Positions 4,533-59,800 of a stretch of DNA of 64,000 nt are shown here, piece after piece. The notes beneath the pieces are model-generated. The model worked only from the letters and a program-made list of their open reading frames with translations, ran no database searches and was not told where the DNA came from. The position numbers and the translations under genes were made by a program. The stretch is from contig JARFYF010000050.1 of NCBI GenBank assembly GCA_030265395.1, positions 17,729,051 through 17,793,050 on the forward strand. The letters run 5' to 3'. This DNA is from Rhina ancylostomus. Lineage: Eukaryota. The first letter of the stretch is position 1, and each line of letters starts with the position of its first letter.

Positions 4533-4666
4533 AGCTATTACAATGGAGAACACGCTTGTCATCCTGTCGACAGTCGCTCCTGACACAGGAAGGTACTACG
4601 TACAAGCAGTAAATGACAGAAATGGAGAAAACAAAACCAGCCAGCCCATTACCTTGACTGTAGAAA
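4533..4666 (+). CDS. sdk2: Sidekick-2 exon, C-terminal half of Ig2 (approx. human exon 5)
   Basis: Pyrimidine tract + cag| acceptor and |gtaagt donor; 134 nt, phase 2->1; encodes [44 protein letters not shown], near-identical to recalled vertebrate SDK2 ([44 protein letters not shown]). Not in the ORF track. Confidence 0.96.
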
Positions 4667-26400: not shown

Positions 26401-27176
26401 TCCTGCAGAGCTGGGAAAACCAAGCAGTATGGTAAAACATGGGTAAACTGAGATTAGTAACCCAGATATCAGAATGGATTTGGAAGAGCGTGAAACCTGG
26501 CTGTTATCCAGCAGTGGCATTGCCTTTAGGTGATGCATACCAGATAACCTCACTTTACATACTCGAGTATATACCATTTCCTCTCTCAAATAGATTTTAC
26601 TGTGTTTTATGGAGCAAACTCATTCTAGATGAGCTGGGAAAAATTCTTATTATGTTCCAGCTTGTTTTATTGGTAAAAGCTATTAAAATATCTTGACATG
26701 GATGAATTAGGGTCTCCAATCTGTTGTTATCAAATCTGCTTGAGATGTTCTAATTAATTTATTTTTGTACAGCCTGTAAATTGAGAAATGTTCAAAATAT
26801 TGCCATGTTAGGTATTTTCATCGTGCTCTGCCTGACAAAGACATCCATGACTTTGGAAAACCATATTTCAATTACAGTCCTTGGCAATAATGAGGAAAGA
26901 TTGATATGTAGCACCTTAGTTACTGACCATCAGACAAAAAAGACAACCACAACTCAAATTAATATTATTCATTTATAGTTAGATCTCAGTGTACATAAGT
27001 TTAATGTTTTCCTCAGTAGAAGCTCATTTATATCCGAGAAAACATATATATGGAAATTAGGTGAGGAATTTAATCAATGGGTTTAATAAACTGGTTAAAG
27101 TAGTAGCCTAGGGGTTTCTTTATACCATGTGAAGCATTAATGGAAGTTTAACTTATCAAGTTATTGATGCTGCAGG

Positions 27177-27178
<2 letters not shown>

Positions 27179-27229
<51 letters not shown>
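27179..27229. repeat. (TC)n microsatellite running into a gap
   Basis: About 25 uninterrupted TC units. Confidence 0.98.
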
Positions 27230-27394
27230 NNNNNNNNNNNNNNNNNNNNNNNNNNNNNNNNNNNNNNNNNNNNNNNNNNNNNNNNNNNNNNNNNNNNNNN
27301 NNNNNNNNNNNNNNNNNNNNNNNNNNNNNNNNNNNNNNNNNNNNNNNNNNNNNNNNNNNNNNNNNNNNNNNNNNNNNNNNNNNNNNNNNNNNNN

Positions 27395-27585
27395 ACGGGA
27401 CACTTGTTTGGAGTCCAAGAGTCGAATGAACGACTGGGGCACACTGACGTCACGGGCAGGTCACGTGACCTTCCCGCGCGCGGGCTCCACTAGCCCACAA
27501 AGAAAGAGTGCCCCGCGCCATCTTGTGTTGGGGCCTCCGACGACGCTCGCAATCGTGGGAGCCAGTTCATGAAAGGTAAGTCGCC
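27395..27585 (+). promoter_or_regulatory. CpG-dense promoter-like segment with consensus 5' splice site (internal promoter or retroelement terminus)
   Basis: 18 CpGs counted in ~190 bp; TGACGTCA 27445-27452, AGGTCACGTGACCT 27458-27471, CCCGCGCGCGGG 27473-27484, CGCCATCTT 27516-27524, AAG|GTAAGT after 27575. Confidence 0.45.
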
Positions 27586-27721
27586 ACAATCTGGATACAA
27601 ATGTCATTTTTATATTTGAATTGAGACAATATTTTCTATAATGTCCTTAAGAAAGTCCTGATATATATTTAAAATAAAGGTCTGACAAATAAAAATGAGG
27701 ATCTAGCTATTTTTGTACAAC

Positions 27722-28030
27722 ACATAAAACATAGAATGGCATTGGACCAGCCATTCGGCTCACGATCTTGTGTCGATCTTGATGAAGATTTATACTAAAT
27801 GTCCTCCTCTTGTTTATCATCCATATCCATTCATTTCAGATTCATGTGTCTATCTAAAAGCCTCTTCAACTCTAACAAACTCCCTGATTCCACTACTACC
27901 CCTGGTAACCCATTCCAGGCACCTACCACTCTCTGCATAAAAACCTGTCCCTCATGTCGCCTTTAAAATCCCCCCCCCTCCTTAAAACCATGCAATGTCC
28001 TTTTTCTTTTGCATTTCTTGCAGGAAAAAT
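27722..28030 (-). mobile_element. CR1 3' end
   Basis: cataaaacatagaa tail; ttccactactacccctggtaacccattccaggcacctaccactctctg. Confidence 0.8.
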
Positions 28031-28094
28031 ACACAATTTTTTTTGTTTAGTGCAGAATGTATGATTTTGCTGGAGCAGATACAGAGCAACAAAC

Positions 28095-28212
28095 CCTTGC
28101 CTTTATATAGCACCTTTCAGCACTTCAAGCCATCCCAAAGTGCTTCACCACCAGTGTGTTCTTTTGTAGTAAAGCTGCTATTAAAATGTTGGAAATACAA
28201 CAGCCAGTTTAG
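28095..28212 (-). mobile_element. Deu-SINE (SacSINE1-like) 3' tail
   Basis: cttgcctttatatagcacctttca...catcccaaagtgcttcac, the reverse complement of the recalled ...ctttgggatg...tgaaaggtgctatataaatgcaag tail. Confidence 0.65.
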
Positions 28213-28499
28213 ACAAGAAGATTCTAGTTTTAATCCTTGGCATGCGACAAATTGATTTGTTCAACCAAAACAGTTAAGGTACATCCTGAATTGGCTTCAG
28301 AATTCTTGGACGAGGAAAAGGGAAATCATTGTGGATTTTGGTTAGTCTTGTTGCCTGGTAACCCCTACGGAAAAGATTGTGTCAATACATGCTTCCCTTA
28401 TTTGCTCTGCTATAAGATAGCTTGAACTAGACTGCTTCAAGTCTCAGTGCGTATATGACTCTGAGGTGAGCTTAGCCCCAAATATTCTCCATGACAAAA

Positions 28500-29090
28500 T
28501 CTATCTCCTTTAAATTCCTTGACCTTGCTGCTCCTCCTAGTGCCTTTGCCCATCTGCGACTCAAACTCTCTTTCTTTTAAATCACCCTTAGACTAGATTA
28601 TCCCAATGGTCTCCTGGATGCTTCCCATCTCCCAGCTCATCCAAAACACTGCCTCCCATTTCCCATACTTTACTAATCAATCTGATTCTTGTTACTCCAA
28701 CAAATCAATTTAAAATTCTCAATATTGTGTTTAAATTCTTAATGTTTTCTCATTTTCCCCTTGTCTGCAGCCTGTTCTAGATCTACAACTTATTCCCCAT
28801 ATCTCCCATGTTGCTCTGACTCTCACCTCTTGTATAAAGCTCTTCGTCTTTGCCCCACATTTGACAAGTGTGCATCACATTGTCCAGGACTCATATTTTA
28901 GAATTCATTCTGTGAAGTATTCCATCTCACAATTTCTCTATTCTTTTTCATTGTCACCATTAATATCTGATTCACCAAGCTACTGGTCACACATATCTCC
29001 TTTTGGCAAAAGCCCATTTTAGTCTCACAATGCTTTTTTCAAACAACTTGGACATTTATTAGTAGTAAAGGAGCTGTGTAAGGGCATGTT
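28500..29090 (+). mobile_element. Old L2-like LINE 3' remnant
   Basis: tagactagattatcccaatggtctcctgg...catccaaaacactgc...tttaaaattctc (RLDY.N.LL / IQN / FKIL pattern). Confidence 0.6.
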
Positions 29091-35475: not shown

Positions 35476-35587
35476 ATACAGGTGCTCCAGCTGACCCCAT
35501 TGCTCCAGTTATAATTATCTCACCAAAGAACACAAGTGCAGTCTTGGGATCTCCTGAGGTTACAATGGAATGTGTGGCCAATGCCAG
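35476..35587 (+). CDS. sdk2: Sidekick-2 exon, start of Ig3
   Basis: taaag| ... AG|gttagt; 112 nt, phase 1->2; (N)[36 protein letters not shown](R); phase matches both neighbours. Confidence 0.95.
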
Positions 35588-46116: not shown

Positions 46117-46754
46117 GAAATTTTAATCATTTATATTTAATTGCAATGGGCTTTCTACAAGAGAACGCTGATAATGTCTGCAGATCAATAGTGTGTGGAA
46201 CACCTGTGTCTTGTGGGTTTTTTTTCAGGCCACTAATTAAGCTAAATATTAGCTGGAAGAAGGATGGAGTACCACTGAGAAGTGGATTTAGTGACCACCA
46301 CCGGAAACTGACAATTCTAAACTTGAAAGCGCGTGATGCTGGGTACTATGAATGCGAAGCTGTTCTCCGAAGCAGCAGTGTTCCCTCAGTCAGCGCAGGG
46401 GCCTATTTGTTTGTGTTGGGTGAGTGTCTGGTTCTGTAAAGAGCACTTACATATGGCTACGAAACATTTTGCAGGCCCTGATGCAGAACATTTGTGTCTC
46501 AAATCTGAACCAAACTCGTTTATTTAATTACCTATTAAAGGATGTACACTATTATAACATGAAAACACAATGTGTTATTAAGGCTTATGATCTGTTGTTA
46601 GTTGAATTTTACTGCCGTATCACAGCTGGCAATAAATTAATGCATATTTTTGTTCCGATACATATTTGCTTGGAAATTTTAATCATTTATGTTTAATTGC
46701 AATGGGCTTTCTACAAGAGAATGCTGATAATGTCTGCAAATCAATAGTGTGTGG
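46117..46754 (+). repeat. 82-bp direct repeat pair (46117-46198 and 46673-46754) flanking an exon
   Basis: gaaattttaatcatttat...tcaatagtgtgtgg; 79/82 identical, three transitions. Confidence 0.97.
46229..46419 (+). CDS. sdk2: Sidekick-2 exon, rest of Ig3
   Basis: ttttcag| ... G|gtgagt; 191 nt, phase 2->1; [63 protein letters not shown] with Ig I-set W and DxGxYxC motifs. Confidence 0.96.
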
Positions 46755-58540: not shown

Positions 58541-59800
58541 GGCAACACAGTGGATAGAGCTGCTGCCTCACAGTGCTAGAGACCACGGGTTCAATCCCCG
58601 ACCTCGGGTCCTGTCTGTACAGAACAGCACAGAAACAGGCCCTTGGCCCATCGTGTCAATGCTGACCACAACGCCAAACTGAACTAATCCTATCTGCTGC
58701 ACATGCCCCTTCACTTCCGCCCTGTTCACGTGCCTGTCTCAATGCCTCTTAAAAATTCCCTAGTTAATCTGCTTCCACCCCTGGCAACATGTTCCAGGAA
58801 GCTACCACTATGCATTTAAAAGAACTTACCCTGCTACATCCTCTAGTATTTGGCATTTCTACCCTGGGAGAAAGACTCTGACTTATCTACCCTACGTCTC
58901 TCATACTCTTAGAAACCTCTATCAGGTCTCCTCTCAGCCCCTGGCGCTCCAGAGAAAACAAGCCAAGTTTGTCCAACCTTTCCTTACAGCTAGTATTTTC
59001 AAATCTAAGCAACATCCCGGTAATCTACTTCTGTACTCACTCCAAAGCCTCTGATAATGCGGCAACCAGAACTGCAAACAATACTCTGAACGTGGCCTGG
59101 TTTTTACACGGCTGCAACGTGACCTGCCAACTTTTATACTCAGTGCCCTGGCCAGTGAAGGCAAGTGTGCTGTACCCTTCTTTACCACCCTAATTACTTG
59201 TGCTGCCACTTTCAGAGTTAGACCCCAAGATCCCTCTGTACATCAATACTCCCAAGGGTCCTGCCATTAACAGTATACTGTCCCCTTGCATTTGACCTCC
59301 CAAAGTGCGACACCTCATACTTCTCCGGATTAAACTCCATCTGCCATTCCTCTCTCCATACAACTTGACAAGCAGACGATCCACATCATTTGGCTGTATC
59401 CTCCGACGAGCTTCTACACCATCCGCGACGCTGCAGGTTTTTGTGCCATCTGCAGACTTGCTATTCAGCCCATCTACATTTTTGTCGCAAACAGCAAAGT
59501 TTCCAGCACCGATCCCCGTGGAACATCGCTGGTCACAGACCTCCAGTCAGAGAAACACTCCTCCGACCACAACACAATGGCCAAGCCAGTTTGGAATCCA
59601 AGTCACCGTCAAGTGGAGTTTCCACATCCTCTGTGAACACCCACATCCCAAAGACATGCAGGTTGGTAGGTTAGTCGGACACTGTAAATTACCCCTAGTG
59701 GCAAAACCCGGGTGGAGCTGATCTGAGAATAAAATGGAATTGATGTTCACTGTGTATTCAATGAGCTGAGTGGCCTGGCTCTGCGCTGTAATACTCCATG
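58541..59800 (+). mobile_element. V-SINE (HE1-like) split by a nested LINE; halves 58541-58620 and ~59613-59800
   Basis: Head gagctgctgcctcacagtgctagagaccacgggttcaatcc...gtctgtac; resumes ggagtttccacat...cccacatcccaaagacatgcaggttggtaggttag. Confidence 0.85.
58621..59605 (-). mobile_element. CR1-clade LINE 3' ~1 kb inserted in the V-SINE
   Basis: acagcacagaaacaggccc tail; minus strand EYCLQFWLPHY; attaaactccatctgcca. Confidence 0.88.

Follow-up and report, generated by a model that had tools for sequence, protein, structure and literature searches.

The CpG-rich patch in the Ig2-Ig3 intron of sdk2 of Rhina ancylostomus, an LTR of a high-copy CsRn1-like Ty3/Gypsy family that is probably inert for the gene

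The CsRn1 clade of Ty3/Gypsy elements (CsRn1, PwRn1, AgCR) was described with a tRNA-Trp primer-binding site (PBS), a CX2HX9CX3C motif in Gag, a 4-bp target-site duplication (TSD), ends of the TGT...ACA type, a purine tract before the 3' LTR and the order Gag-PR-RT-RH-IN; in that paper, of 2008, the LTR pairs were more than 97% identical and the clade was termed invertebrate-specific (PMC2582038). Among vertebrates, teleosts harbour CsRn1 families whose LTRs are short, and those of pufferfish, with LTRs of 174 and 302 bp and about 20 full-length copies per family, were listed without a recognised Gag (PMC4746887, PMC11117352). Among the solitary LTRs of human ERVs that lie in introns, the antisense orientation is described as preferentially tolerated (PMC1794541). 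With respect to the host gene family, for mouse Sdk1 a short form was reported from cDNA and RT-PCR, with a five-residue first exon, without signal peptide or Ig1-2, and cytoplasmic (PMC6333872); the mammalian Sdk1 form devoid of N-terminal Ig domains to which the first-pass annotation refers is thus confirmed in print for mouse. A review ascribes Sidekick adhesion to Ig1-4 and terms the significance of such variants unknown (PMC7479261).

The window studied here is a stretch of 64,000 nt of Rhina ancylostomus (contig JARFYF010000050.1, 17,729,051-17,793,050, forward strand), and positions are counted from its first letter. The host gene is sdk2, the Ig2-Ig3 intron of which is 30.8 kb long and contains a CpG-rich patch; the placement of this patch between Ig2 and Ig3 was borne out by exon matches to Sdk2 on either side (Table 1). 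The exon of the Ig2-Ig3 linker matched Sdk2 residues 192-227 of PDB 5k6x/5k70 with E 3e-13 (Sdk1 only 6e-7), and both this exon and the following one resembled Sdk1 less closely than they did Ig3 in the crystal constructs of Sdk2. The closest homolog was a catshark protein (84%). The natural donor at 4666 is phase 1, and recomputation gave this phase also for the candidate donor at 27575 and for the exon at 35476, as had been claimed.

The visible patch has a GC content of 60%, 18 CpG and a CpG o/e of 1.02, against an intron mean of 1.34 CpG per 191 bp and 11 CpG in the next-best 191-bp stretch of the window, so that the enrichment is far above background and the earlier description of about 190 bp with 18 CpGs in a CpG-depleted intron holds. 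That second most CpG-rich stretch is at 59377-59567. CpG islands are defined by a GC content above 50%, a CpG o/e above 0.6 and a length of at least 200 bp; the patch exceeds the first two values, yet its visible length is just 194 bp. The nine-base motif at 27516-27524, which we take to be of the YY1 type, the TAG at 27491 in frame with the ATG at 27569, and the donor after 27575 (GTAAGT from 27576) were all found where the first reading had placed them. The three palindromes also have the positions given for them, but they are separated by 5 nt and 1 nt and are therefore nearly, not strictly, back-to-back. The unit extends as a dispersed repeat to 27588, past the end at 27585 given first. 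An Rfam scan of 26500-28500 gave a sole match, by chance (E 3.6) and outside the patch.

Table 1. Positions of the features of the LTR, its flanks and the surrounding sdk2 exons in the window.
Feature	Position	Strand	Basis or remark
sdk2 exon, end of Ig2, phase-1 donor	4533-4666	+	Match to the C-terminus of Sdk2 Ig2, E 1e-20
(CT)n microsatellite (27180-27229), then a gap of 165 N in the assembly that conceals the left end of the LTR	27180-27394	.	
Visible 194 bp of an LTR of about 252 bp, CsRn1-like Ty3/Gypsy, antisense to sdk2	27395-27588	-	Homology to sister copies
Site of a deletion of about 29 bp, central AT-rich piece of the LTR lost	27439-27446	.	Short direct repeats flank the piece in intact copies
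CRE palindrome TGACGTCA	27445-27452	.	
Extended E-box palindrome AGGTCACGTGACCT	27458-27471	.	
GC palindrome CCCGCGCGCGGG	27473-27484	.	
Presumed YY1-type motif CGCCATCTT	27516-27524	.	
ATG AAA G/GTAAGT, antisense reading of the first 20 bases of the LTR	27569-27581	+	A of ATG is a CpG-to-CpA change
ATCT, expected right-hand 4-bp TSD of the window copy	27589-27592	+	End of homology and family TSD; left partner in the gap
sdk2 exon, Ig2-Ig3 linker and start of Ig3, phase-1 acceptor	35476-35587	+	Match to Sdk2 crystal construct
sdk2 exon, remainder of Ig3	46229-46419	+	Sdk2 match

Searching the genome (2.2 Gb) with the patch turned up 3,210 candidates at first look; 40 of these were scored, with 43 matches, and the homology stopped sharply at query position ~195, i.e. 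at about 27588 of the window. The 19-mer containing the donor had 1,352 exact matches in the genome (control 0) and an 18-mer from the opposite end of the LTR 2,209, both counts being lower bounds on copy number; the junction of PBS and LTR had 452. The patch is thus one of many dispersed copies, which the first-pass annotation had itself named as evidence against its proposal of a host promoter, CpG island-like and with a mini-exon. That proposal is not supported, in view of the thousands of copies and of the methylation-type decay of CpGs described below.

Full copies of the LTR are about 252 bp long and have TG...CA ends with short inverted termini. In the window the 5' terminus of the element, TGTGGCGAC on the minus strand, lies at 27588, and about 29 bp of the 3' end would fall within the assembly gap. 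Loci in two parts, with both outer ends recovered across a gap or an internal piece, showed an exact 4-bp TSD match in 26 of 30 cases (cross-locus control 0.025; L021, which duplicates L019, was not counted). Among ungapped single LTRs, 7 of 20 had a 4-bp match (control 0.092) and none of the 20 a match at 3, 5 or 6 bp. The family TSD is accordingly 4 bp long, with an alternation of purines and pyrimidines. The other 13 of the 20 ungapped LTRs (among L002-L020, L057, L065, L070 and L071) had no 4-bp match, against the 26 of 30 gap-spanning loci that did; these may reflect mis-joins made through the repeat during assembly, or else recombination between different elements.

After the LTR, on the minus strand, the PBS was complementary to the host tRNA-Trp plus CCA, as predicted by ARAGORN for tRNA-Trp(CCA); of 27 junctions, 15 showed this at 12 of 12 bases and the remaining 12 at 10-11 of 12. 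The PBS was followed by Gag with DUF7041 (E 4e-20 and 2e-21). The CX2HX9CX3C motif was stop-free in 19 of 25 loci, or present in 21 with stops allowed, these 25 including sister subfamilies of 70-80% LTR identity; no stop-free motif was found in the first 77 loci, most of which are without that region. An RT piece (L085) matched RVT_1 with E 3e-10, one contig (L109) carried, in order, RNase H, rve (integrase core), the purine tract (PPT) and an LTR, and another locus (L098) had an LTR, Gag, CHCC, a protease motif and an RT motif. The order RT-RNase H-integrase was pieced together from these separate natural copies and not read from one element, and the protease was recognised by motif match alone, with no Pfam match in the pieces scanned. 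Pfam was empty for 6/8, 2/4 and 2/3 of the sister-copy pieces in three scans, and five loci with LTR ends nearby (L103-L107) had none of the coding motifs sought. Direct TG...CA terminal repeats, a PBS after the 5' LTR, a PPT before the 3' LTR and this order of pol are the traits of Ty3/Gypsy elements, and it is essentially certain that the patch is a Gypsy LTR.

TRIMs are miniature LTR elements with a short non-coding internal region. They were considered and rejected: every short span found here includes a gap of 100 N, and the pieces from inside the elements code for Gag or integrase. Two LTRs about 1.5-2 kb apart, with Gag and part of pol kept, were observed at L098, L094, L102 and L082; these are possibly internally deleted derivatives. 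The LTRs of L094, L102 and L082 are just 68-79% like the family of the window copy, so that sister subfamilies exist.

The family was classified as CsRn1-like. The tRNA-Trp PBS, the CX2HX9CX3C motif of Gag and the 4-bp TSD were found at family level, the left TSD of the window copy being in the gap, and the label is kept at 'CsRn1-like' because it was drawn from traits rather than from an RT/RH/IN tree. The TGT...ACA-type ends, the purine tract before the 3' LTR and the order Gag-PR-RT-RH-IN are further likenesses to the clade as described in PMC2582038. In contrast to that description, the host is a cartilaginous fish, the LTR pairs are about 91% identical and the copies number in the thousands. 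The LTR of 252 bp is short, as in the pufferfish families, but Gag with DUF7041 was recognised here; this comparison is one of descriptions, not of sequence relatedness (PMC4746887, PMC11117352). A full-text literature search found no paper joining CsRn1 and Chondrichthyes and nothing specific on elasmobranch Gypsy elements; repeat databases and subscription journals were outside its scope, and the family may therefore already be catalogued.

The simplest reading of the window copy is a solo LTR, the left end of which is hidden by the gap. Contigs from four of the eight sequencing runs included none spanning 27230-27394 and gave no useful joint. One contig of run X1 (organism A, depth 2.1) matched 27589-27817 and had 36 letters unmatched where the LTR would begin; it is possibly an empty site in organism A, but as a lone contig of low depth it is not taken as evidence. 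About 150 bp to the right of the LTR, at ~27730-27945, there is a second, unrelated high-copy repeat, over which, in three runs, the contig depths summed to between hundreds and tens of thousands.

The orientation was read from the positions of PBS, gag and PPT in sister copies. All three are on the minus strand; the element is therefore antisense to sdk2 and 27588 is its 5' end. With this orientation the CRE, E-box and GC palindromes, as motifs of the LTR family, would likely belong to the element's own U3 promoter region and face away from exon 35476, to judge from the LTR layout given in PMC3601003. In copies sampled independently of the window, the CRE was present in 15 of 21, the E-box in 11 of 20 and the GC palindrome in 3 of 24, and the YY1-type motif was kept in 19 of 29 pattern-sampled copies. 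Like the human ERV solitary LTRs, the LTR is intronic and antisense; it differs in being of Gypsy rather than retroviral type and in having a cartilaginous fish, not a mammal, as its host (PMC1794541).

Downstream of the motif cluster, intact copies carry an AT-rich piece that may represent, on the minus strand, a TATA or poly(A) signal. The window copy lacks this piece. A similar shortening was found in 6 of 49 full-length copies. In L002, L003, L013, L014, L027 and L041, and in the window copy, the piece is absent or shortened between short direct repeats, by either recurrent deletion or descent in a sub-lineage.

An excess of CpG transitions is the pattern expected from germline methylation. 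In 17 LTR pairs, 230 of 2,683 sites differed, and transitions affected 0.236 of CpG sites vs 0.032 of other sites. The family is thus not very young, and of the alternative origin first suggested, a young DIRS/LTR retroelement end, the LTR retroelement was upheld while youth and DIRS were not, the element being an integrase-type Gypsy. In the window copy, 6 of 8 minority-state sites are CpG-type, that at 27569 (the A of ATG) included. It has 18 CpG vs a family median of 19; the 'island' is therefore best described as the incomplete decay of a CpG-rich LTR. Methylation, which had also been named as evidence against the host promoter, is suggested for both the family and the window copy by this decay, which together with the copy number argues against a germline-methylation-protected, single-copy CpG island.

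All four motifs are intact in the window copy, as in none of 30 full-length copies chosen without regard to likeness, and only one of the 30 had as few minority sites; this set consists mostly of more diverged PBS-linked copies, and there is some circularity in its majority state. The impression that this copy is unusually well conserved did not hold on a retest by pairwise distances over the last 120 bp, which gave an average value against the pattern-sampled copies (mean distance 0.080 vs median 0.083). As 8 of 19 pattern-sampled and 3 of 20 PBS-linked copies were as close or closer and as close, respectively, the window copy is average to slightly well kept.

With respect to the mini-exon, exact genome matches numbered 177 for the ATG form against 1,226 for the CGTG form, so that the ATG is most plausibly a frequent CpG-to-CpA change. 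The donor 9-mer was found in 36 of 49 full-length copies. GGTAAGT at 27575 is the only one in the Ig2-Ig3 intron and the strongest donor consensus match there, and 16 ATG-open, phase-1 GTRAG mini-exons were counted in the same intron. The ATG stands in a weak context, with T at -3 and A at +4, and has a further ATG upstream of it (27426). Both the start codon and the splice signal probably arose by accident rather than as parts of a hidden short form of Sdk2.

The best explanation, to which we give a probability of roughly 0.86, is the LTR of a high-copy, tRNA-Trp-primed Ty3/Gypsy element, antisense in the Ig2-Ig3 intron, presumably silent and inert for sdk2. The window copy would likely be a solo LTR, methylated and removed by splicing, that plays no part in the production of Sdk2. 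The integrase would have inserted the element in the intron with a 4-bp duplication, and recombination of its two LTRs would have left a single one. The CRE, E-box and YY1-type motifs would be the promoter of the element itself and point away from exon 35476. The CpGs would have been eroded by germline methylation, and one such change would have turned CGTG into CATG beside a donor-like terminus common to most copies.

It is unlikely, but the best of the alternatives, that the same LTR leaks in demethylated cells (germ line, early embryo) and gives rare transcripts without selected function, either because transcription towards exon 35476 is driven at a low level by the palindromic sites or because the donor is used cryptically. 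The motifs are palindromic and intact, the donor is the intron's strongest, and LTRs are described as commonly giving rise to antisense transcription (PMC3601003). Against leakage, the window copy shows methylation-type decay and, by an analogy with another family and another region, no splicing was seen for young antisense HERV9/HERV-K internal regions in human genes (PMC1794541).

Less probable still is exaptation, in which the antisense LTR would serve as internal promoter and first exon (M-K-D-T-G...) of a cytoplasmic Sdk2 without Ig1-Ig2 or signal peptide, convergent with mouse Sdk1. The idea is not absurd because the mouse short form is real; the hypothetical product would share with it the tiny first exon and the absence of signal peptide and Ig1-Ig2, although that form belongs to a paralog and is backed by cDNA and RT-PCR, whereas the candidate exon here is a transposon terminus (PMC6333872). 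The frame and position of the mini-exon fit and all four motifs are kept, but the same ATG-donor occurs in 177 copies, the decay of the window copy is average, the ATG context is weak, and about 12-15 genes would have a sense, in-phase ATG-donor by chance (a rough figure that assumes an intronic fraction of 40-50%). A single sdk2 mRNA was found in mouse (Kaufman 2004, as cited in PMC6333872). Of 66 Sdk2 records with the N-terminal half of Ig3, 31 are without the Ig2 motif and several begin near this junction, but those starting at the junction have unrelated N-termini and some are marked partial. The start MKDT was found in none of 116 Sdk2-like records, proteins of up to 2,000 aa with one catshark as the sole named cartilaginous-fish match, which weighs little either way. 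In Sdk2 models of frog, medaka, cyprinid and tamarin (P0068, P0071, P0054, P0008, P0038), short unrelated N-termini were observed just before the Ig2-Ig3 linker. Among the papers listed for sdk2 and retrotransposons, none was relevant by title or start of abstract.

There is practically no chance that the patch is a host CpG island of single copy or one end of a DIRS element: GC 60% and CpG o/e 1.02 would suit such a reading, but thousands of dispersed copies rule out the former, and TSDs together with a DDE integrase (rve), neither of which is known from DIRS/Ngaro tyrosine-recombinase elements, rule out the latter.

As found, the antisense Gypsy LTR has little consequence for Sidekick biology. 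If exaptation were true, an adhesion-dead form of Sidekick, of a kind whose significance is described as unknown (PMC7479261), would have originated convergently; one CpG deamination would have given an LTR its start codon, and a paralog would have re-invented mouse Sdk1's short form. The locus also serves as a caution, since an LTR can take the form of a CpG-rich patch that is dense in motifs, has a perfect donor and adjoins a gap in the assembly; the locus yields as a side result a high-copy CsRn1-like family in a cartilaginous fish.
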